Positions 13,536 through 30,000 of a stretch of DNA of 64,000 nucleotides are shown here, piece by piece. The first letter of the stretch is position 1. Each line of letters begins with the position of its first letter. The DNA is from Promethearchaeota archaeon (GTDB lineage Archaea; Asgardarchaeota; Lokiarchaeia; Sigyniarchaeales; SOKP01): positions 1-64,000 of the forward strand of contig JAUVNS010000019.1 of NCBI GenBank assembly GCA_030599585.1. The letters are read 5' to 3'. The notes below the pieces were generated by a model. It saw nothing but the letters and a program-made list of their open reading frames with translations. It ran no database searches and was not told the origin of the DNA. A program made the translations under genes and the position numbers.

Positions 13536-13976
13536 ATGAGCTCAAGCAAAGTAAAATCCTCTAATTCGATTTTAAATATTTTAATTGTAGCTGTAGGGGT
13601 AATTTTTCTATTTAGAGCGATAATCGACTTTTTAACATTAGGTGGATTAATTTTACCTGAAATTTTGGCAGACTGGGGGAGTGCAGTTGGTGGTGTTGCT
13701 GCCCTTGGAGGCCAAGGGTTAGTCTCCCTTGTTTTAGCCTTCTGGTGTATAGTTGCTGGATTTGCCATGTTTAAGGAAGCAGAATGGGCTATGGGACAAG
13801 CATTAGTAGTTCTCAGTATAATGGTCGCTACGGGAGTTTCCCCAGTTATAGGATTAATAATGGATCCCGCTTCTTTTGACTTAGCTAACATATCAGGTAT
13901 GATAAATCTCGTTGCTTTTATAGTAGGGGTAGTTGGATTTATCTGGTTAATGGTTACGCGTAAAAGATATGATTAA
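13536..13976 (+). CDS. 4-TM membrane protein, unknown function
   Basis: Four hydrophobic helices and a basic C-terminus (TRKRYD). Confidence 0.8.
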   Translation: MSSSKVKSSNSILNILIVAVGVIFLFRAIIDFLTLGGLILPEILADWGSAVGGVAALGGQGLVSLVLAFWCIVAGFAMFKEAEWAMGQALVVLSIMVATGVSPVIGLIMDPASFDLANISGMINLVAFIVGVVGFIWLMVTRKRYD

Positions 13977-14139: not shown

Positions 14140-17100
14140 GTGTTTTCCATTCAAACCGATTTGCTCGAGAAAAAAATTAAAGAAAGTTTCGAATATCCCC
14201 AACATTTATACCCTAAAAGAAAAGGTTTAGCAAAAGCCTTTCACATGTCTAAAAGTTTCGGACACAGCAGAGATGTAACTTCAGTCGCCTTGTCTCATAA
14301 AGGAGATTATATGGTTAGTGGCTCAAAGGATAATACTCTAAAAATATGGGATTTTCTAACTGGAAATCTGTTAAGGACAATAGAAGCTCACGATCATTCA
14401 ATATTAGCAGTAGCAGTATCGATGGATGACAACTATATTTATAGTTCTTCTTCTGACAACGTGATAAAAGTATGGGGGTTAAAGAGAGGGCATTTTATAA
14501 ATGAATTAAGAGAACATACTGATTCAGTTACATCATTAGCTATAACTTCCGATGGGAAAAACATCATAAGTGGTTCCAAAGATAAAAGTGTGATTGTTTG
14601 GAATCTATTAAATTCGAAATCCATTCATAAGTTTGAACATAAAAGTGCGGTATTCTCAATTGCTATATCTAAAAATAATGAATTCATGGTTTGTGGAACT
14701 GAAGATGGTGTTATTAGATTATGGAACTTAAAGAGCAATAAGTTTATTCGCACTATTAAAGGGCATGCTGGAACTGTAACATCACTTACAATTTCACCAA
14801 ATGGAAAATACATAATTAGTGGATCAAATGATAATACAGTAAGAATATGGAGTCTTTCAAAAGGAAGACCGATTTATATACTTAAAGGTCATTCAGGAAT
14901 AGTTCGATCTGTAGCCATAACACTCGATGGAAATTTGATTGTGAGCGGTTCTGACGATAAAACCATAAAAATATGGGATGTTTCCACTGGTGAAATTATA
15001 AGAACGCTCAAAGAGTATACTGGTAAGGTATTGTCAATTACATTTTCTCCTGACGGGAAGTATATAATAACAGGATCTGCAGATAATAATATTATGGTAT
15101 GGGAGAATATGAAAGGTAAACTCGAAACCACTATCAACGCTCATAATAATAGAGGAATCAATTTTGTAGCAATTTCTCCTAATGGAAGTTATATAGCAAC
15201 TGGTTCAGATGATAATACTATTAAAATTTGGGATTTTAAAAGCTTAAAACTCATAAGAACATTAAAAGGGCATAACAGAGCGGTTAATTCGGTTGAATTT
15301 TCTCGTGATGGAAATTACATTGTAAGTACTTCATTTGATAAGAAAGTTATAATTTGGGATATCAAGCGCCCAGAACCATACAGTATTGTTACAAACATAG
15401 GTGGTGTTCCATACTCAGCATCATTTACTCCCGATAATAAACAAATAATCATGGGTTTAGGCAATAATTATCTTAAAATTTGGGACATTCAAAATAAGAA
15501 TTTTATATGGGAAGAAAAAGCTCATAAAGGGTCGGTAACTTCAATAAAGTTCACTCCGAATGGAAGATATTTTGTAACTGGATCAAACGACAAACATGTA
15601 ATGATATGGGATTTCATTTCAAAAGAAGTAATTAAAGATCTTAGTGGGCATAAGGGAAAGGTTTCATCAGTTGCAATTTCTCCTAATGGAGCAAATATTT
15701 GTAGTAGCTCTGATGATAATTCTATAAATGTATGGGATTTTTACACCGGCGATTTAGTTTCTGTTCTTGAGAATCATAATGATACTGTTTCAAGTGTAAC
15801 CTATTCCCCAATTGGTAATTGCTTTATTACTACATCTAAAGATGCGACAGTGAAAGTTTGGGATAATAAATATGAACTTATCCAATCATTTGAAGGGCAA
15901 GGAGCTGATGTGAATTCAGTGGTAATTACACCAGATGGAAAGTTTGGTATAACTGGATCCAGTGATGGGCTCTTAAAGATTTGGGCTCTCACATTTGGGG
16001 GTATATTTAAGAATATTAAGGGCCATTCTGAAAATGTGAATTCAATTGCAGTTTCACAGAACGGAAAATTAGCTGTAAGTGGATTGTCTAATAAATCTCT
16101 AATTGTGTGGGATTTGTCTAGTGGAAAATTGATTAAAACTCTTAGGGGCCATACAGATATTATTAGTTCAGTAGCATTTTCTCCCGGTGGAAAATATGTG
16201 GTTAGCGCTTCCTATGATAACACTTTAATAGAATGGGAAATCAATAGCGGTGAAATTATATGGACATTGAATGGACACGATGAGGCTGTTACTTCCGTAG
16301 CTGCATCTTATGATAAAAAATATATTGTAAGTGGTTCAAGAGATAAGACAATTATAATTTGGGAGCCAAAGATGCTTAAACTTTTTAAAAGGCTGAAAGG
16401 AGCAAAAAGTGCAATAACATCTATCGACATTTCACCAACCGGAGAATATATTGTGAGTGGTTTAGAAGATAATTCCATTAATATCTGGAATTTGAAAAAA
16501 GGAAAACTTATTTTTACACTTGAGGGCCATAAAGAAGCCGTAAATTCAGTTGCTTTTTCGCCTGATGGAGAATATATTGCGAGTGGTTCTAAAGATCAGA
16601 CGGTTAAAATTTGGAAAGTTGATACTGGTGAACTAGATTATACATTTGAAAAAATTAATAGCTCAGTCACATCAGTATCATTTTCTACTGATGGTTTATA
16701 TATTGCTTGTGGTACAGAAGATAATTTTATTCGAATATGGGATTTCATTGAAAAGTACCAAACATCCTATTATTACTTATCAAAAGTTAATTCAGCAAAA
16801 TTTATTCCAAATACAAATCAAATTATTGCAGGTTATGATTCAGGTGACGTTTTAGTCTGGGATTTATTAATGGAAGAACATGAAAAACTTCTAAAAGAGC
16901 TTCGAAGCAAATTAAAGAATGTAGAGGACTTAATCGTTAAAAATAATTATTCAGAAGCTATTGAACAATTGGACATTGTTTTGGAAACTGCAGATGTATT
17001 TAATTTTGAAGATATTAAAGCAGTTGCGTACGAAAAACTAAAAAATTTAAGAGATCCAGAAGAATCTTTAAAAAATGTCAAAAAGATATTAGAATTTGAA

Positions 17101-17829
17101 TTCGAAAACCAGAGAAATATAAGTAAAGCTGAGATGGTTAACCAACTCAAGATAGAAATATCAGAAACAGAATATTATGAAAATTTAATAGCAAATCCTG
17201 TAGATTATGAAGCCTCTGAAACAGAACATCTAGAAAATTTAGGAACGAAAATATTACAAGAATTACTTAATCCTACATTGTATGCTTTAGTAATACAAAA
17301 GGAATATAATTTGATCACCGCAAAAAAAATAGGTAGATTCCTTCAAGATCAAGGCTTTATTAAAGAATTTAGAAATTATCCTCTTGATGGAGAAAAGTTT
17401 AAGTCGACAAGTGAGAAATTAGAAGATTTGATAGTATTTGTGAGCTATGCCACTACAGACGCGGAAACATTCAATATTAAAGAATTATCAAAGAGATTAA
17501 AATCTTATGAAGAAATTAAAGAAGTCTTATATTGGCAAGAACACATGACAGATAATATTACGTTATTTATGAGTGATAGCTGTGATAAATGTGATGTAAT
17601 GATTCTTTTTTGTTCTGAAAGTGCTCGAAGTTCTAAAGCTGTCGACAAGGAATGGACGGCCGCAGATATGATGGGTAAACCCATAATTCCTATATTTTTA
17701 AACTCTGATCATATCCCTCCACTTCTAAGATCAAGATTAGGATTTGAATTTGATTTAATGGATTTCGAAAAAAATGTGGTACAGATTTATAACTTGATAA
17801 TGAAAAAATCTGGACGCCGTGTTAATTAG
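14140..17829 (+). CDS. WD40-repeat (21 repeats) protein with C-terminal TIR domain
   Basis: 21 GH...(S/T)GS.D..(I/V)W[DNE] repeats counted by eye (~14260-16865), a helical linker, then TIR motifs IVFVSYA...DVMILFCSESARSSKAVDKEW...IIPIFL...IPPLL. Confidence 0.93.
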   Translation: MFSIQTDLLEKKIKESFEYPQHLYPKRKGLAKAFHMSKSFGHSRDVTSVALSHKGDYMVSGSKDNTLKIWDFLTGNLLRTIEAHDHSILAVAVSMDDNYIYSSSSDNVIKVWGLKRGHFINELREHTDSVTSLAITSDGKNIISGSKDKSVIVWNLLNSKSIHKFEHKSAVFSIAISKNNEFMVCGTEDGVIRLWNLKSNKFIRTIKGHAGTVTSLTISPNGKYIISGSNDNTVRIWSLSKGRPIYILKGHSGIVRSVAITLDGNLIVSGSDDKTIKIWDVSTGEIIRTLKEYTGKVLSITFSPDGKYIITGSADNNIMVWENMKGKLETTINAHNNRGINFVAISPNGSYIATGSDDNTIKIWDFKSLKLIRTLKGHNRAVNSVEFSRDGNYIVSTSFDKKVIIWDIKRPEPYSIVTNIGGVPYSASFTPDNKQIIMGLGNNYLKIWDIQNKNFIWEEKAHKGSVTSIKFTPNGRYFVTGSNDKHVMIWDFISKEVIKDLSGHKGKVSSVAISPNGANICSSSDDNSINVWDFYTGDLVSVLENHNDTVSSVTYSPIGNCFITTSKDATVKVWDNKYELIQSFEGQGADVNSVVITPDGKFGITGSSDGLLKIWALTFGGIFKNIKGHSENVNSIAVSQNGKLAVSGLSNKSLIVWDLSSGKLIKTLRGHTDIISSVAFSPGGKYVVSASYDNTLIEWEINSGEIIWTLNGHDEAVTSVAASYDKKYIVSGSRDKTIIIWEPKMLKLFKRLKGAKSAITSIDISPTGEYIVSGLEDNSINIWNLKKGKLIFTLEGHKEAVNSVAFSPDGEYIASGSKDQTVKIWKVDTGELDYTFEKINSSVTSVSFSTDGLYIACGTEDNFIRIWDFIEKYQTSYYYLSKVNSAKFIPNTNQIIAGYDSGDVLVWDLLMEEHEKLLKELRSKLKNVEDLIVKNNYSEAIEQLDIVLETADVFNFEDIKAVAYEKLKNLRDPEESLKNVKKILEFEFENQRNISKAEMVNQLKIEISETEYYENLIANPVDYEASETEHLENLGTKILQELLNPTLYALVIQKEYNLITAKKIGRFLQDQGFIKEFRNYPLDGEKFKSTSEKLEDLIVFVSYATTDAETFNIKELSKRLKSYEEIKEVLYWQEHMTDNITLFMSDSCDKCDVMILFCSESARSSKAVDKEWTAADMMGKPIIPIFLNSDHIPPLLRSRLGFEFDLMDFEKNVVQIYNLIMKKSGRRVN

Positions 17830-17900
17830 TAATTAATAAAGAAGTTTTAATATTCATTTAACATATTTGTACATTTTAAATTAAAAGAGCGGAATCAAAA

Positions 17901-19631
17901 ATGGAAGAAAATTTACATTTTGTATATGAGAAAGAGTATTGGTATATTAGCGCATTTATTAATACAAATGAATTTATTGGTGAGACAAAAGCAGAGGAAA
18001 TCGAAGCGTTATTATTAGAAAAGCTAAAAAATCTCAGTGAAGTCGATTTAAAAAAAGCATATAATTTTTTAGAAAAATACCCTAAACCTGAAGAAAAAAA
18101 AAAGGTTTTGGAAAATATGGCTAAATCAATTACTATTGAGTGCGATTGGGAGCCTTTTTTCCAAAATTTTCCCTATACAGACGAAAATAATCCTTATACG
18201 GAAGATAATAAGGATTTAACTTATAATACTTTAGGTTATTTTAAATTGGAAGTAGAATATTTTAGAAACGAGCCTTTTCAAAAGGAAACTTTAACTCCAG
18301 ATTTAATACAGCAAATCCCTTTTATTGCTATTGATATCCTTAAGAAATTTAGCAAAAGAAAAGAAAATCAATTTCTTCTCCTTGATATTGAAAGTCCAAT
18401 TTATGTGTTTGTGATATCTAAGAAATTAAAGCCAATGGAAGTTCAATGGACAGAAGAAAACATAAACAAATATAAAAAAAGCATTGGAACATGGACACAA
18501 ATATATTCAGGTCAGTGGACAGACTATTCTGATGAACTTTTTGAACGAAGAACTAAAAAGAACCTCTCTAATCGCGTAACAGAATTACACTACATTCAAA
18601 GAAATTCTGGATTTATTTATATGGTACAAAAGAATTACGAAACAGAATTTGAATACATCAATCAAATGATTTTAAATCCAACTCCTCAAATAAGAGCTGT
18701 TCTTTTTGCTCTCATGTCAATTAATAACTCTCTTGACATATTATTTATGAAAAGGTACTCCGATGTTTTTATGAGCTTGGAACAAATTGAGGAAAAAACA
18801 AAGAATCTAAGATTTTTAAGAGGAATGATCCAAACAAAGATGAGCCTTATCTACAGTGAATTAGATTGGAATCCAAGAGAACATTACGTTAGGGTTTTGA
18901 CTCATTTATTAAAGATATTTCGAATAGAGGTTATAATTGAAAGAGTTAATGATAAATTTAAAACTCTTTATGACACGCTACAGGAACTATATACTAAAAG
19001 GCATGAAGAAAATCAAAAAAATACTAAGAGGGCAGTTAATTTCTTGGGTATCTTATTTGGTGCCGGATTCATATTAGAATTTGCTAATTCATTAAGAATT
19101 ACATTTGGATTAAGAGAAGAAGATCAACCAACTCCACTAGTACATGCATTATTAACAAGCGTTCTAGGCATAGGATTTGTTGTATTATTAGCATACTTTA
19201 TTTATGGTAAAGTAAAAACTAAAAGTCTAGATTATGGCCATACTGTTGATGCTGTTATTCAAGTCGACGATCGAAATATAATTTTAGTTAAAAGAAGATA
19301 CGCTCCTTATAAAGATAAATACGCCCTTCCTGGTGGATTTATTAAATATAATGAGAATCCAGCGCAAGCAATATTAAGGGAAGTTCGTGAAGAAACCAAT
19401 CTTGCCGTGAAAATAATAAGTAAAATTGGTACATATGATCAAAAAGGAAGAGATCCTAGGGGAAAAATTGTTTCTACTGCATTTAAGTGTCGTCTTGTTA
19501 AAGATCTTTCAATGTTACAAGAGGGAGATGATGCCTTAAGAGTAAAGATTATTCCAATTGAACAACTTAAAAATCTAGAGTTGGCATTCGATCACAACCA
19601 AATCTTAAGAGACGCTGGAGTTTTAAAGTAA
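17901..19631 (+). CDS. CorA/DUF155-like 2-TM protein fused to C-terminal Nudix (NadM/NrtR-type ADP-ribose pyrophosphatase-like) domain, paralog A
   Basis: Long helical stalk (HY...L...F.I....ERVNDKF..LYD..Q), two TM helices, then TVDAVI...KR...ALPGGFIKYNENPAQAILREVREETNL (Nudix box), RDPRG, GDDA, LAFDH. Confidence 0.82.
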   Translation: MEENLHFVYEKEYWYISAFINTNEFIGETKAEEIEALLLEKLKNLSEVDLKKAYNFLEKYPKPEEKKKVLENMAKSITIECDWEPFFQNFPYTDENNPYTEDNKDLTYNTLGYFKLEVEYFRNEPFQKETLTPDLIQQIPFIAIDILKKFSKRKENQFLLLDIESPIYVFVISKKLKPMEVQWTEENINKYKKSIGTWTQIYSGQWTDYSDELFERRTKKNLSNRVTELHYIQRNSGFIYMVQKNYETEFEYINQMILNPTPQIRAVLFALMSINNSLDILFMKRYSDVFMSLEQIEEKTKNLRFLRGMIQTKMSLIYSELDWNPREHYVRVLTHLLKIFRIEVIIERVNDKFKTLYDTLQELYTKRHEENQKNTKRAVNFLGILFGAGFILEFANSLRITFGLREEDQPTPLVHALLTSVLGIGFVVLLAYFIYGKVKTKSLDYGHTVDAVIQVDDRNIILVKRRYAPYKDKYALPGGFIKYNENPAQAILREVREETNLAVKIISKIGTYDQKGRDPRGKIVSTAFKCRLVKDLSMLQEGDDALRVKIIPIEQLKNLELAFDHNQILRDAGVLK

Positions 19632-19649
19632 TAAAATAAACTATCATCT

Positions 19650-19772
19650 ATTTTTTTTTTTGAAAAAATTGCAAAATTAATAACATTGAAGATAAAATAC
19701 GAAAAAAAAAAATTCAGTATTTTAAGAATTAGGAAGTAGGAGTTAAATTTTAAATTTATTGAATAAAAAAAA
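19650..19772. terminator. Bidirectional oligo-T/oligo-A terminator region between convergent paralogs
   Basis: T-run at ~19650-19661 on +; A-runs at ~19702-19712 and ~19765-19772 (T-runs on -). Confidence 0.5.
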
Positions 19773-19786
19773 TTAAGCAAAATAAG

Positions 19787-21466
19787 TTAATTCAGTAAAT
19801 TTGCGTCTTCTAATATTTTTTTGTGATCAAAGGCTAATTCAATGTCCTTAAGCTGGTTTTTAGGTATAAGTAGTACGTTTTTAGAATCATCACCGCTTCT
19901 CATTTTCGTGATATCTCCAATAATTGAACATTTATAAACTGTTGAATGTACACTGCCTCTGGGATCTCGTCCTTCTTCAGTATATAAGCCAATTTTATGT
20001 AGAATTTTCACATCTAAATTAGTTTCTTCTTTGACTTCTCTTACTAATGCCCTAATCGCACTCTCGCCCTTTTCTATAAACCCTCCGGGTAATGCGTAGT
20101 AATCTTGAAAAGGAGGATATTTTCTTTTTATCAAAATTACATTACCTGCGTTATCCTCAATTACTGCATCAACTGTCTTTCTGATATCAGCCTTCTTCAT
20201 TTGTATACGGTTGTTCAGATAATATCCTATTGTTGTTATTAGTATCCCGATTATAACGATTGCTATCGAACCATTTAGTATGGATGTAAATAAGTTTCCC
20301 TTTTGTAAATTTAGCGAAATCACAATCACGGCCGCTAAATCAGCTAAAATTCCTGCTCCGAAAAGTAAATTTAATAAGTTTAATCCACTTTCAGTTCTTT
20401 CTTGGTTCTCGTCATTCTTTACATGATACAAGTCTTGCATTACATCGTAAATTGAACTAAACTTTTGATTTATTCGTTCTACTATATTCACTATTTCAAA
20501 TTCAGCTAATAGATGTTTCAATACGCTCGAATAATGTTGTCTTCTATTATAATCTAGCTCGTTATATATTACGCTAAGGGTAGTTTGAATCATTCCCCTC
20601 AATAATCTTAAGTTCCTAATTTTTTGTTCTATTATTTTTACTCCTTGAAATGCTTGTGTTTGAGTTTTTAGGAACAATAAGTCCAACGATTCATTTATTG
20701 AGCGTAAAGCAAAAAATACAGCCCTAAGTTTTGGGGTAGGAAATATAACATATTCCTTCATGTAGGATTCAAAGAATTTTTCATAATTTTCCTCAGCCAT
20801 ATAAATAAAACCAGAGTTTCTTCTTAAGAAGTGTAATTCTGAAAGTCGATTGGATAAATTATTTTCAATTCTCTTGTTAAATAATGTTTCAGAATAATCT
20901 TCCCATTGACCTGAATAGATTTCAGTCCAATTAGCGATCACTTTTTTATATTTTTCGATATTATAGGGATTCCAAACGATGTCCTTTGGTTCGCTTTTGT
21001 TAGAAGTCACAAACACATAAATAGGGCTTTCAGTATCAAGCTGAATGCCTTCATTTTCAGACTTATAGTTATACTCTTTGAGGATATCTAGAACAAGAAT
21101 GGGAATTTGTTGTATTAAAAGGGGTTTTAACGATTTTTTCCTCGATGGATCTTCTTTGTAATGTTCTACTTCGAATTGGAAATATCCTAATGTATTAAAG
21201 CCTTTCTCAGAATTTTCATCCTTAAAAAGGAAATTAGATAAGCTCTTAACCCAATTGCATTTAATAGATACATGTTTTATTAGTTCAAGGATTTCATATT
21301 TAAGATCTTGTCGATAAATATCTTTTTCCTCTAAATTTTTAAACCTAAATTTTATTATATCCTCGATTTCCTTACTTTTTGCCTTTGTGTTAATATTAAC
21401 GCCGTCTATGAAAGCACTAACAAACCAAAACTCTTCTTTATAAATAAATTGTAGAGGTTCATTCAA
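19787..21466 (-). CDS. CorA/DUF155-like 2-TM protein fused to C-terminal Nudix domain, paralog B
   Basis: Colinear with paralog A (NTLGYF..EVE, QQIP, ESPIYVFV, W..IYSGQW.DYS, NLSNR..ELH...RNSGFIYM). Nudix box PGGFIEKGESAIRALVREVKEETNL, RDPRG, LAFDH. Confidence 0.82.
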   Translation of the reverse strand: MNEPLQFIYKEEFWFVSAFIDGVNINTKAKSKEIEDIIKFRFKNLEEKDIYRQDLKYEILELIKHVSIKCNWVKSLSNFLFKDENSEKGFNTLGYFQFEVEHYKEDPSRKKSLKPLLIQQIPILVLDILKEYNYKSENEGIQLDTESPIYVFVTSNKSEPKDIVWNPYNIEKYKKVIANWTEIYSGQWEDYSETLFNKRIENNLSNRLSELHFLRRNSGFIYMAEENYEKFFESYMKEYVIFPTPKLRAVFFALRSINESLDLLFLKTQTQAFQGVKIIEQKIRNLRLLRGMIQTTLSVIYNELDYNRRQHYSSVLKHLLAEFEIVNIVERINQKFSSIYDVMQDLYHVKNDENQERTESGLNLLNLLFGAGILADLAAVIVISLNLQKGNLFTSILNGSIAIVIIGILITTIGYYLNNRIQMKKADIRKTVDAVIEDNAGNVILIKRKYPPFQDYYALPGGFIEKGESAIRALVREVKEETNLDVKILHKIGLYTEEGRDPRGSVHSTVYKCSIIGDITKMRSGDDSKNVLLIPKNQLKDIELAFDHKKILEDANLLN

Positions 21467-21564
21467 TGTGGTTCCACTTTAAAAATATTATAAATTCAAT
21501 TAAATTATATTAAATATTAATTACTTTTGATTATTTAAGAACTTCACAATATATATTGAAGAAA

Positions 21565-22506
21565 ATGTCAGTCAAACAGATACAAGAAGAAATTTTAAAA
21601 CTTAAAAAGGAACAAGATGTTCTGATCCTTGCCCACTATTATCAACCAATAGAAATTCAAGAAATTGCAGATCATTTAGGAGGTTCTTTAGGTTTGTCTC
21701 GGCTTGCGAATAAAGCAGATACAGATTATATTATATTTGCTGGCGTAGATTTTATGGCAGAAACAGCTTCCATTTTAAATCAAAATAAAAAGGTTCTGAT
21801 ACCAAACCCCGAGTCATGTTGCCCCATGGCAGCTTATTTAACAGCGGATAAAGTAAAAGAGTTCAGACTAAACAATCCTAATTTACCGGTAGTAGTCTAC
21901 GTTAACACTACAGCAGCGGTTAAAGCTGAATCAGACATCTGCTGTACCTCTGCAAACGCAGTTGATATTGTAAAGCGAATCAGTTCAGAATTCAAAACAA
22001 AAACAGTTCTTTTTGGACCCGATGCAAATCTAGCTGATTATGTTGAGCAAAAATCAGGAATCAAATGCATCAAAATGCCCGAAGAAGGAAATTGCTATGT
22101 GCATTCTCAATTAACTATTGATGATATGGAAAAAATTAGAATTGCTTATCCCAATGGTGAAATATTAGTTCACCCGGAGTGTATTAGAGAAGTCAGAGAA
22201 TTAGCAGATTTTGTAGGTTCTACGGGTCAAATGTATAATCGAGTAAAAAATGATACTACGGTAGAAAAAGATTTTTGCATAGGAACAGAAAAGGGTTTAA
22301 TGGAAAGGATGGCACAAGACTTTCCTAAGAAGAATTTCCACCTTATTAGCGAGAAACTTCTATGTTATAATATGAAAAAGAACACGATAGAACTTATGAG
22401 ATATGTACTCGAACATTTAGACGATCCAATGTTTGAGGTAAAAGTACCTTCTGAAATTGCAGAAAGAGCACTAATACCAATTGAACGGATGTTGGAATTT
22501 TCATAA
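21565..22506 (+). CDS. nadA: Quinolinate synthase
   Basis: ILAHYYQ, GVDFMAETA, CPMA, YVNT, CCTSANA, GPDANL, CYVH, HPEC, GST, GTE, C.NMKK; three Fe-S Cys present. Likely start ATG 21565 (TTG 21556 is possible). Confidence 0.96.
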   Translation: MSVKQIQEEILKLKKEQDVLILAHYYQPIEIQEIADHLGGSLGLSRLANKADTDYIIFAGVDFMAETASILNQNKKVLIPNPESCCPMAAYLTADKVKEFRLNNPNLPVVVYVNTTAAVKAESDICCTSANAVDIVKRISSEFKTKTVLFGPDANLADYVEQKSGIKCIKMPEEGNCYVHSQLTIDDMEKIRIAYPNGEILVHPECIREVRELADFVGSTGQMYNRVKNDTTVEKDFCIGTEKGLMERMAQDFPKKNFHLISEKLLCYNMKKNTIELMRYVLEHLDDPMFEVKVPSEIAERALIPIERMLEFS

Positions 22507-27049: not shown

Positions 27050-30000
27050 TTAATCGATATTAAAGAAGCTACCTTTGAATTGAGTCAATCTTAATTGCGA
27101 GAGAGGAAATTTCAATATTAATTTTGCTTGTTCGTAAATGTTCTTAAGTTTAACAAGTGATTCATCTCTCAAATCCAAATCATTTCTTTGTAAACAGTCA
27201 TCAACTAAATTGTATAAGTCTTCAATTTTAGATCTTATCTTTTCTTGAACTTTAAGCGTGATCAGAAATTCGTCTAGAAGCATAATCTTTATATTTTTTG
27301 CGAATGCTGGATTCCTTTGATTGAGATCCTTAGTCAACTGGTCAATGTCAGATTTAGTAAAGGATGGGTGAGTCAAAACAATAAATAAGAAACGATCTTT
27401 TGACTGATATTCCTTATAATACTTCTTAGTAATGTAATAATCTTTTAATTTGGGCCGTTTTGCCTCATGTGTAAAATCTACTACTAACTCCCTTATCCCA
27501 TTGGGTATTATTCTACTAAGAGTTCCGATGACAGTTAAGAATGTCGCTGAAACAGGTATTGAAAGGTCAACTTGTTTGCCTAACCTTCCTACAGGTTGTT
27601 CGCTTTCGACCCCTATTGTAAAACTATGCGATTTGAGACTCATCATTATCAAAAGTTCGATTGGTAAGTGAGTATATGTACCCACAATATTAGGTAAATA
27701 ACCTTTAAGGCTTCGCGAATGTAACTTAAATGCTTTATGGGTTACATCTCGCAGATGGGAGTTTTTTGGTTGAGATAAGATATATGATCGTATTTTTTTA
27801 TAAGGATTTCGGTTTTCCCTTAACATATTTCCATACGCTAAAAAGTGACCAGGGTTTAACATCTCCGTTTCAATTGTATCTATTAACTCATTGAAAGAAA
27901 TAGATCTTCCTTTGTTCTCAGATTCAAGAAAATATAACCCCCTATAGAGATCGTATTTACTTTCGACATAGACCTTAGAAGTTTCTTTATCATATTTGTT
28001 TATATATGGTTTACCAAATGGATTTAAAAACACAAACTCTTTAATGAATTGAGAAACCGTAGATTTTAATTTTTTCAATTGGTCTGAAGAAATCTTAATT
28101 CCTATAGAATCAAAACGAGCTTCTGTTAATTTGTACGTGTTATAATCTATTTCAAGTAATTGAGTAAAATCAATTCTTTTATCAATTCGTCTTTTACCTA
28201 AAAATAAACTTGCAGTATCCTTCGTAAATATCAACTTGGCTAATCTTGTGTATGAGAAAGGTACTCCCCAAAATTTAGGGAATATATCAATAAGACTCTC
28301 AATTAACACTACCCTAGGTTTTATAGGAGTTCTTAAGTTTTCAAAAGCTTGCCCTTTAATAAATTGCATGAAATTACCATAATCTCTGAAAAATTTGGTA
28401 GTTTCATCATCTCTAGTACCATGAACGTCTTCATAAGCTTCGAGAAACTTATCCAAAAACCATTCATATGAGTGACCATCTTTGGTTGATAGAATATTGA
28501 TTTTAGTTGCTCCTTTTTGAATCCAATATTCACCTTTATGATTTTTTGCCCAGATTGCGTAGTATTCGTCAAACTTTTCTTTGAGATATTGGAGGTCTTT
28601 TGAAAAGTCAAATTTCTTATCGAACCGGAACATTTCTCTCTTTAAAATCTTGTATAAATGATGAGTCATTTGAGCTATTGAATAATAAAGATTGTCAATT
28701 TTTCTATTTTCTCCCTTATTAATATCAAAAGTCATTCCAATAGTTATTCCACCAAAGCTTATTCCGAGGTTTCCAAAAACACCAAATCCGCTCAGAGCAG
28801 GAATCAATGTTTGTAGAGCCATCCATCCCAAAGACGCCACGCCTATCCCAAGAGCAACCAAAACTTGTTTTTTGTTGTTTCGCACATAATCAGCAACTTT
28901 GCTTTTGCTTATCGCGATTTTAACAGGATTGAATACCTTGCTAAAAACACTTTTAATCGAAATATCTTCCGTGAGACAGTAAGTTGCAATCGTTGTGAAT
29001 GCTAGTGCGCCAAAAGGTCCGAGCAGGAACGAGGCGGTAAATCCCGTAGCCAACGAAACAAAACTAAGAACTTTGTTTGCTCCTCTAAGTAATGTCATTT
29101 GTTCTGCGTTCTGTTCTTGCTGAGACGCGATTTCGGTCTTATATTCGCTTATTTCGGTTAAAAATTGTTGCATCGTCGGTCTCAATCCTTTCGAGGCGTA
29201 TTTCGAGTCGAGCCTTTCAGACAACGACTTTGGTTGAGCCTGTTGAGAACTAAACATGCTCGAAAGCGGTCCGCTGATCGCCTCTCTACCGCTCTCTGCG
29301 ATGGAACTAAGAACTATCTGCAAGATAGCGTCTCCTCCTGCGCGTCGCACTAATCCCGAGACCGTGCTTTCGATCCAAGGGTCGATAACGAGTTCTTGTC
29401 CTATTTCTTTTACTACGGCGCCAATTACGCCAGCAAAACTAAAACTTTTAGCGGCGTCTGAAAACGTTCCCAATAAATTCTTTAACACATTGCTCGAAAC
29501 CTGTTTGATGCCTTCTTCACCAACAAAAGAATTTATGATGGTTCCCATACCGGCAGTAAAAACAATAGAAAGCGCAGTAGAAATCGCGGTAACTATCGCC
29601 GTATAAACTAGTTCGTGGAATCCAAATTGCGTCTGAGTCGCAAGATTAAATTGGTAATTATATTCGAGGATGGCAGCTTCGATGGCTTGAGCGGTTGCGA
29701 TTTTGCTTAATTGTTCTGATGTAAGATCCCGAACGTCCGAAACTGAGCGGTATTTTTCTACTTTTATCTCGAAAAGTATTTTTGGTTGAGAATAGGACAC
29801 GCTTCCAAAATCTTGGTCTAACTCGTCTGTCTTTGAAATATAAGAATTTAGTATCATAGAAAGCGCAGGATCCGAATCGATGGTAATGATTCCCGCGCTT
29901 AAATCGACTTTAAATTGGTCGGGAAGGAAAGTGTTAACGTGAGAACTTTTGGTTGATTTTATAGGTTCTGTTTGAGCCCAGACCACGTAAACTTCGATAG

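Follow-up and report, generated by a model that had tools for sequence, protein, structure and literature searches.

Across relatives of a Lokiarchaeial archaeon, genes for TIR-domain sensors recur beside the gene for a membrane protein that ends in a Nudix hydrolase domain. We describe this pairing at a locus in the first 64,000 nucleotides (nt) of contig JAUVNS010000019.1 (Promethearchaeota archaeon, GenBank assembly GCA_030599585.1, forward strand), hereafter the window. The TIR protein at this locus carries 21 WD repeats (WD40x21-TIR). Its gene is followed by paralog A, one of two proteins that join a pair of transmembrane (TM) helices to a C-terminal Nudix domain, then by the second such protein, paralog B, and by nadA. 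The recurring combination of a TIR sensor with a CorA-shaped Nudix fusion suggests an undescribed NAD-derived signalling or defence module. In the explanation that we judge best, and hold with about even confidence, the functional unit comprises the small membrane-protein gene s146, the WD40x21-TIR gene and paralog A; paralog B and nadA lie outside it. The features of the locus are as follows.

14140–17829, + strand: WD40x21-TIR gene, 1229 amino acids (aa)
17434–17754, + strand: TIR domain (Pfam TIR_2), with the Glu1171 codon at 17650–17652 in the motif AVDKEW
17901–19631, + strand: paralog A, 2-TM/Nudix fusion, 576 aa
19335–19394, + strand: Nudix box of paralog A, G-x5-E-x7-REVREE, catalytic residues all present
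13536–13976, + strand: s146, small membrane protein of 146 aa with four predicted TM helices and no Pfam family
19787–21466, − strand: paralog B, 2-TM/Nudix fusion, 559 aa
21556–22506, + strand: nadA, quinolinate synthase, above the cut-offs of TIGR00550 and NF006878
13472–13891, − strand: antisense open reading frame (ORF) over s146, 139 codons

The four larger genes had been reported in a preliminary description of this DNA. All four ORFs are present at the positions it gave and with the domains it described, and the gaps of 71 nt between the WD40-TIR gene and paralog A and of 89 nt between paralog B and the divergent nadA also agree.

TIR genes in the neighbourhood of the Nudix fusions

To follow the fusion through related genomes we took about 9 kb on either side of 80 homologues and searched the ORFs in these flanks with the window proteins and with a TIR profile. 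A tree built with FastTree (Shimodaira–Hasegawa-like support) contains two well-supported clades. Clade A (support 100) comprises 23 non-identical proteins, including paralog A of the window; clade B comprises 42 rows, including paralog B. Loci are designated below by L and genomes by G.

The two clades differ sharply in their neighbours. A TIR gene lies within 7 kb of the fusion in 17 of the 23 clade-A loci, whereas a TIR neighbour occurs in just 2 of 42 clade-B loci, both of which also have a clade-A gene adjoining, and in none of the other 40. Within the genus, a Pfam TIR_2 match lies no more than 10 kb from paralog A in 12 of 18 genomes, against 0.66 expected by chance from the 2–16 TIR genes that these genomes of 3–5 Mb contain. 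A more sensitive TIR profile adds two further genomes of the genus, G238, where a contig break intervenes, and G247, where the TIR gene is a stop-containing fragment. Six clade-A loci have no TIR gene within 7 kb. At one of them (L036) the contig ends at the gene, and those of G247 and G238 have the fragmentary or contig-split TIR sequences found with this profile, designated A3. The informative negatives within the genus are G261 and G266 only. In-frame stops occur in the TIR fragment of G247 (G247:C63:29973–30338), in one clade-A copy (G231:C168:471–2174) and in one clade-B copy (G242:C77:195742–197418); decay or assembly errors are possible causes.

The pairing of paralog A with TIR genes is found in three unrelated contexts, namely a block containing nadA (described below), a c40/c41 block and a radical-SAM/permease block, and the two genes may be co-directional, convergent or divergent. 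Since the genomes with clade A are all relatives, their loci are not independent and the counts make the evidence look more independent than it is; the stronger argument comes from the changes of context and orientation. A distant genome, G132, has its own duplicate pair of fusions, one copy flanked by two TIR genes and the other by none, which, with the caveat of long branches, is an independent repeat of the A/B pattern. The association of a TIR gene with a channel-like Nudix fusion, which the preliminary description had proposed to check by conservation of the neighbourhood, thus holds for paralog A: it persists through changes of context and orientation and at a frequency far above chance.

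The TIR partners are of several kinds. An orthologue of the WD40x21-TIR gene adjoins paralog A in the window and at L001, L034, L035, L037, L038, L044, L047, L050, L051, L053 and L113. These orthologues, 1192–1232 aa long, are confined to genomes that also hold paralog A; within the genus, 13 of the 21 genomes that hold clade A have one, against 0 of the 21 that lack clade A. At other clade-A loci different TIR proteins are the neighbours, with up to four TIR genes around a single paralog A (L050) and three in L002. A dedicated TIR subfamily exclusive to clade-A genomes was sought and not found, as the profile scores are continuous and high-scoring short TIR proteins occur in genomes without paralog A. 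Among TIR genes, only the WD40-TIR orthologue is exclusive to clade-A genomes.

Unlike the cytosolic WD40x21-TIR protein, other TIR proteins beside paralog A combine a signal anchor, a large domain of a usually extracellular type, one TM helix and a cytoplasmic TIR domain. The ectodomains are of three types: an LVIVD propeller with TSP3; a WD40/PQQ-type propeller; and a NosD beta-helix with a periplasmic-binding-protein fold (Peripla_BP_6). The order of parts resembles that of Toll-like receptors. Proteins with this receptor layout are encoded at the following positions.

L002:11854–15069, − strand
L002:15366–17000, − strand
L042:6803–8845, + strand
L042:14436–18650, + strand
L001:5528–9802, − strand

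Outside the window, the same genome encodes a further TIR protein of 802 aa (C3:93082–95487, − strand) with a signal anchor, a beta-helix-like region, about seven TM helices and a C-terminal TIR domain. It scores 154 bits with the TIR profile made from paralog-A neighbours, and no Nudix fusion lies near it.

Domains of the sensor, the small membrane protein and the fusions

In the WD40x21-TIR protein, WD repeats occupy approximately residues 40–908, followed by a helical linker at about 909–1090 and the TIR domain at 1099–1205. The 21 repeats have a regular period of 40–43 residues (∼42), and the Pfam WD40 match has an E-value of 5e-205. The linker, of about 180 residues, matches no family, and hydropathy indicates no hydrophobic segment or TM helix anywhere in the protein. 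The TIR domain matches PF13676 (TIR_2) with an E-value of 6.6e-12 and 46–48 bits, against a cut-off of 28. The AVDKEW motif occupies residues 1167–1172, so that its glutamate is residue 1171, and this position is invariant across the 14 TIR domains encoded beside paralog A (alignment A3). The sequence of the TIR domain alone finds no match among PDB sequences, whereas the TIR profile does, including SPARTA TIR-APAZ chains. In the profile alignment Glu1171 aligns with the glutamate of the S..V.KE motif in PDB chains 9m0n and 8qlo, the two TIR chains for which alignments were printed, the latter under a generic TIR title; we take this glutamate to be the catalytic position. Glu1171 is thus a putative catalytic residue, and the domain resembles TIR domains of the NAD-cleaving type. 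The reading of this gene as 21 WD repeats followed by a TIR domain with glutamate in AVDKEW was already made in the preliminary description and is borne out by the repeat count, the TIR_2 score and the invariant residue.

Directly upstream of the WD40-TIR gene lies s146, which that description had not listed. Its product has four hydrophobic segments (hydropathy scores 1.9–2.7) and a conserved FKEAEWAMGQALV motif, and it matches no Pfam family. Wherever the flank is complete (10 of 10 loci), an orthologue of s146 adjoins the WD40-TIR gene, as also in L114 and L117, where the s146/WD40-TIR pair is located away from paralog A. We conjecture that s146 may tether the soluble WD40-TIR protein to the membrane. 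The ORF on the opposite strand is probably not a gene, since it has no TM segment and belongs to no matched family or conserved protein cluster. A paralog of s146 is encoded elsewhere in the same genome (C21:64051–64506, + strand, outside the window; E-value 7e-43), with no WD40-TIR gene beside it.

Paralogs A and B align along their whole length at 45% identity and share one architecture: about 375 residues that match no Pfam family, two TM helices and a C-terminal NUDIX domain. In paralog A the helices lie at approximately residues 380–402 and 412–440 and the Nudix domain at 448–571. In the sequence of paralog A, each helix has lysine and arginine next to its cytoplasmic end, and the loop between the two is acidic, so the Nudix domain should be cytoplasmic, on the same side as the N-terminal domain. 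A conserved LN.L.G.G element marks the start of the first TM helix across the family. The N-terminal and TM part (∼440 residues) is more strongly conserved than the Nudix domain, and the most conserved part of the whole fusion is a cytoplasmic patch at residues 183–252, comprising W183, Y202-S203-G204, D208, N221, S223, R225, E228, H230 and Y252 (in paralog A the motif YSGQW...LSNR.SELH, residues 183–241). We regard this patch as a candidate ligand site. Across clade A, paralog A is 64–94% identical.

The PF00293 (NUDIX) matches have E-values of 6e-18 for paralog A and 4e-18 for paralog B, with 65–66 bits against a cut-off of 21. The Nudix box (G-x5-E-x7-REUxEE type) is intact at residues 479–498 in paralog A and 462–481 in paralog B, and the strict form is present in 60 of 60 proteins (24/24 in clade A, 36/36 in clade B). 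Both paralogs keep the GRDPRG and LAFDH motifs. The best named matches of the domain are NadM-Nudix and NrtR proteins (PDB 2qjo, 2qjt, 3gz5, 3gz8), with E-values of 1e-9 to 1e-11 by sequence and 2e-10 to 1e-9 with Foldseek; in the ranking of solved chains, three unnamed MutT/Nudix entries come immediately ahead of them. Scores lie far below the full-length NCBIfam cut-offs for NadM and NrtR because the adenylyltransferase or winged helix-turn-helix (wHTH) partner domains are absent. The earlier assignment to the RDPRG/LAFDH-bearing NadM/NrtR type thus agrees with motifs, sequence and structure matches alike. At the level of sequence, the domain appears to belong to the ADP-ribose-pyrophosphatase-like NadM/NrtR group, and similarity suggests ADP-ribose as its ligand or substrate. 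Paralogs A and B share the two motifs with NadM-Nudix and NrtR and differ from most NrtR proteins in that their Nudix box is intact.

The N-terminal domain had been called CorA-like, a resemblance that is confined to the predicted fold and undetected in the sequence. AlphaFold2, run on a 37-row alignment, models paralog A with a predicted local distance difference test score (pLDDT) of 89. Whole-model Foldseek searches are swamped by the Nudix domain, so the N-terminal 445 residues were folded separately (pLDDT 88.8, predicted template-modelling score 0.81). This part forms an alpha/beta domain followed by long helices, a stalk, that run into a helical hairpin. Its top solved fold is CorA, with a Foldseek probability of 0.96–0.99, yet with an E-value of 5e-3 and TM-scores of 0.2–0.3. 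VIA gives Z 7.1 to Methanocaldococcus jannaschii CorA, with 228 residues aligned across model residues 9–434, and Z 6.6 to Thermotoga maritima CorA, and Atlas gives TM-scores of 0.59–0.62 to clusters named ‘CorA-like’ and MJ0711_N; these fold scores lie within the range where helical models also match unrelated proteins. In its predicted layout the protein resembles CorA, Mrs2 and ZntB: an alpha/beta domain in the cytoplasm, a long helix as stalk and, towards the C-terminus, a pair of TM helices, with both ends of the chain cytoplasmic.

Pfam, a profile search of the PDB and hhalign all failed to detect sequence homology to CorA. PF01544 does not match either N-terminal domain at E-values up to 10, a profile of 35 family members does not find a CorA chain in the PDB, and hhalign against an alignment of 10 Asgard CorA proteins gives a probability of 0.15%. 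The GMN motif is absent from the first TM helix and the following loop in both paralogs and 35 relatives, whereas the Asgard CorA controls all carry YGMNF; the fusion has another invariant cytoplasmic motif instead. Since kinship to CorA is undetected in sequence, we call the paralogs CorA-shaped, a description of the predicted fold, and not CorA proteins. Canonical CorA (PF01544) was not found in the window's own genome, G000 (a 100% complete assembly), which has two MgtE-domain ORFs. Within the family, 81 of 135 genomes encode a PF01544 protein, in many cases alongside paralog B, and so do 14 of 14 control genomes. The possibility that the fusion replaces canonical CorA was rejected on these grounds, namely the CorA genes that relatives hold alongside paralog B and the MgtE-type genes here.

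The family is narrow. A scan of 1.84 billion representative proteins with the N-terminal domain returned 92 matches only. A search of 400 genomes of the phylum places the full fusion mainly in the family to which the window belongs; at least six neighbouring families from the same order and class have scattered copies, and public homologues of the Nudix fusion are labelled Lokiarchaeota or Promethearchaeota. Sister families (L101–L109, several in closed genomes) encode the N-terminal domain and TM hairpin without a Nudix domain (∼400–450 aa, ∼30% identity), and no TIR, nadA or Nudix gene lies near these Nudix-less homologues. Stand-alone Nudix proteins 40–48% identical to the fused domain are common among the same 400 genomes.

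Paralog B, nadA and the inherited gene block

Window positions 1–26235 form a conserved gene-order block common to about 30 related genomes, which includes two HGD-D dehydratase subunits and a wHTH and zinc-ribbon protein. The order SepF ... HGD HGD LSM Robl ThiF Hexa NUD NadA LRR wHTH-Zn Ubl is kept in about 30 loci, where NUD is the fusion, Hexa a hexapeptide-transferase gene, LRR a leucine-rich-repeat protein and Ubl a ubiquitin-like gene. The genes around the module in the window (Roadblock/LC7, LSm, SepF, ThiF, the ubiquitin-like gene and the LRR protein) are an Asgard-typical set. Beyond the block, an ORF of more than 12,316 codons occupies positions 27050–64000 on the − strand and extends past the window end; G+C content rises from about 30% to about 38% near ∼26 kb, at the start of this giant ORF.

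The identity of nadA is secure, with 343.8 bits to TIGR00550 (cut-off 262.9) and 356.9 to NF006878 (cut-off 294). Paralog B or A adjoins nadA in about 31 loci, usually divergently and about 100 nt apart. Paralog B adjoins the hexapeptide-transferase gene at least as often, and at L058 and L076 (genus g7) nadA is gone from the locus while paralog B stays beside the hexapeptide-transferase gene. Outside the block (∼20 loci in other genera and families) no nadA lies near the fusion. The functional link between paralog B and nadA drawn in the preliminary description is therefore better read as inherited synteny, and nadA was rejected as a member of the module. A metabolic link between an ADP-ribose-type Nudix domain and NAD synthesis is nonetheless thinkable.

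The second paralog had likewise been assigned to the TIR module. It was rejected as a TIR partner since TIR genes adjoin it only where paralog A does too, and it probably lies outside the module. Two genomes, G254 (92% complete) and G269 (81% complete), hold a clade-B-type copy and no TIR gene by either profile; this argument is weaker than it first appeared, because the TIR profile found TIR-like genes in four of the six genomes to which it had initially applied. The full set of four adjacent genes occurs only in the window and in its nearest relative, G231 (L113), which comes close to the occurrence in a single genome that would speak against a four-gene unit.

Proposed pathway, alternatives and known systems

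From gene order, domains, conserved residues, a predicted fold and a conserved neighbourhood, all of which are observed, we infer every biochemical step of the pathway that follows. The propellers would respond to a ligand or to a state of assembly, perhaps at the membrane by way of s146, and the activated TIR domain would convert NAD+ into ADP-ribose or an ADP-ribose-derived nucleotide. This nucleotide would bind paralog A, either on its conserved cytoplasmic patch or on its Nudix domain, and the protein so bound would alter membrane permeability or ion flux. With its box intact, the fused Nudix domain would then cleave the nucleotide's pyrophosphate bond and so reset the system. Such a pathway, in which a TIR-made nucleotide is read out at the membrane by paralog A and erased by the Nudix domain built into it, is to our mind about evenly poised between right and wrong. 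Antiviral defence and other kinds of sensing seem roughly equally probable as its purpose. Sensing is favoured by how strongly paralog A is conserved, by its housekeeping flanks and by TIR partners that look like receptors; defence is favoured by the patchy occurrence of clade A, by TIR genes that are several and exchangeable, and by the parallel with Thoeris.

Several observations weigh against this pathway or some part of it. All clade-A genomes come from one family, and two to four clade-A loci with full flanks lack a TIR gene (L046, L049, L052; L040 and L043 have nadA only). The flanks of paralog A are ordinary metabolic genes, not defence islands, and at 64–94% identity the protein is unusually conserved for a defence effector. 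The resemblance to CorA is modest (Foldseek E-value 5e-3, and Z values of about 7 are common for helical models) and has no support from sequence, so any pore is conjectural. PADLOC identifies no known Thoeris component at the locus, its only candidate being the Nudix family PDC-S07, on the Nudix domain. The s146/WD40-TIR pair also occurs apart from paralog A in two or three genomes (L114, L117, L115).

Many prokaryotic TIR proteins are NAD+-depleting effectors, and the main rival to nucleotide signalling starts from this. It posits a two-step breakdown of NAD+, in which the TIR protein depletes NAD+, the Nudix domain clears the resulting ADP-ribose to AMP and ribose 5-phosphate, and the CorA-shaped part is no gated pore but acts as an anchor or regulator. 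In favour of this scheme, selection keeps the Nudix box intact within an ADP-ribose-pyrophosphatase-like group, and SPARTA TIR-APAZ chains are among the matches of the TIR profile. It leaves unexplained why some 440 residues of N-terminal domain and TM helices, with their invariant patch, are conserved beyond the Nudix domain, why Nudix-less forms persist in sister families, and why several different sensor-TIR genes converge on one membrane protein; we consider it unlikely. Simple adjacency without function is less probable again. Here paralogs A and B would be housekeeping membrane proteins, for example cation channels modulated by ADP-ribose, beside a permissive insertion site that collects TIR genes. 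High conservation of the family, its housekeeping context, the variation in type and number of TIR genes beside paralog A from genome to genome and the lack of canonical CorA in the window's own genome are all compatible with such a site. The TIR genes, however, follow clade A into three contexts and do not accumulate beside clade B in the same block, the independent duplicate in G132 repeats the pattern, and the WD40-TIR orthologue occurs only in clade-A genomes. Nor can the fusion stand in for CorA, which 81 of 135 genomes of the family possess.

The full circuit first proposed for this locus, in which the TIR protein feeds both channel-Nudix paralogs and NadA, co-regulated through the 89-nt divergent promoter, replenishes NAD+, appears to us very improbable. 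Its NAD-related logic is coherent, the four genes are indeed adjacent here and in G231, and paralog B or A sits beside nadA in the ∼31 loci noted above. That adjacency falls within an inherited block of more than 12 genes, in which the hexapeptide-transferase gene is at least as frequent a neighbour; nadA has been lost from L058 and L076 while paralog B stayed, and the ∼20 loci outside the block are without it. Clade B, moreover, has no TIR gene of its own in 40 of 42 loci, and G254 and G269 have a B-type copy with no TIR gene by either profile. Returning to the signalling pathway, we can also imagine a more ambitious form, a transmembrane TIR pathway of Asgard archaea in which receptor-like TIR proteins make, at the membrane, a NAD-derived messenger that gates a CorA-shaped channel and is erased by the channel's own Nudix domain. 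The receptors, as part of the same joint proposal, would be the ectodomain-TM-TIR proteins or the cytosolic WD40x21-TIR protein tethered by s146. We hold this form, receptors included, to be unlikely. If true, it would be a prokaryotic counterpart both of the Toll-like-receptor layout and of the TRPM2 ‘channel-enzyme’, in the lineage closest to eukaryotes.

Several known systems offer partial parallels. In type III-B CRISPR systems (Bacteroides fragilis Cmr), the CorA effector is in obligate partnership with a hydrolase that degrades the signal, the two being fused in some species (PMC10600005). As with CRISPR CorA and its NrN/DEDD phosphodiesterase or SAM-AMP lyase, a membrane effector of CorA architecture stands here beside the maker of a nucleotide signal, with a coupled or fused hydrolase, and in both a large cytoplasmic N-terminal domain is the proposed ligand site. 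The differences are that the putative signal maker is a TIR protein and not Cas10, that the C-terminal domain is Nudix and not DHH/DEDD, that there is no CRISPR locus, and that kinship to CorA was not detected in sequence against PF01544, PDB chains or Asgard CorA.

Thoeris systems come closer in their signal maker. Their effectors include TM proteins, an ion channel and hydrolases (bioRxiv 10.64898/2025.12.03.692087), and several TIR genes (multiple thsB) can serve one effector. Like types II, VII and X, with TM, Macro, SLATT or ion-channel effectors, our locus sets a TIR gene with the catalytic-type glutamate beside a non-TIR effector candidate, often with several TIR genes, and does so in a conserved neighbourhood (17/23 loci; 12/18 genomes against 0.66). 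The effector likewise joins membrane helices to a domain from a family that binds ADP-ribose derivatives. Paralog A, however, belongs to no described effector family (SIR2-SLOG, Macro-TM, SLATT, DUF2270, DUF6650 and others), and Pfam finds NUDIX only. The TIR domains here are fused to huge sensor domains, and the genes of this strongly conserved module lie on an archaeal chromosome. The words ‘nudix’ and ‘CorA’ are both absent from a survey that covers 29 types of TIR system, and searches of the literature on TIR, Nudix and Thoeris, on TIR in Asgard archaea, and on CorA with Nudix and TIR in defence found no description of a CorA-shaped/Nudix/TIR architecture. Surveys of defence in Asgard archaea report no complete Thoeris system. 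An Asgard virus is reported to encode a Tad2-like sponge for TIR signals, and its putative hosts have no predicted complete Thoeris system (PMC13700489); such a sponge fits unrecognised TIR signalling in these archaea.

Among eukaryotic proteins the nearest analogy is TRPM2, the cation channel gated by ADP-ribose, in which a channel-type membrane protein likewise bears a C-terminal cytoplasmic Nudix domain of the ADP-ribose class (the NUDT9-homology domain). In early-branching animals this domain is catalytically active. TRPM2 is a six-TM tetramer and the fusion a two-TM CorA-like protein, and their Nudix subgroups differ, so the likeness is one of analogy only.

What is new here is that the fusions fall into two clades, A linked to TIR genes and B syntenic and free of them, that nadA is reduced to a syntenic neighbour, that s146 is a partner gene and that the other TIR partners have a receptor-like layout. 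Separating the module (s146, WD40-TIR and paralog A) from its bystanders (paralog B and nadA) shows which genes to clone. TIR-based nucleotide signalling is common to bacterial, plant and animal immunity, and its archaeal effectors are almost unknown. TIR sensors paired with a membrane protein that bears its own ADP-ribose-type hydrolase would add a new effector class, and, next to CRISPR CorA-NrN, would make a second case in which a channel-like effector is joined by fusion to its own ‘off-switch’. A system open to experiment would also become available among the prokaryotes most closely related to eukaryotes.

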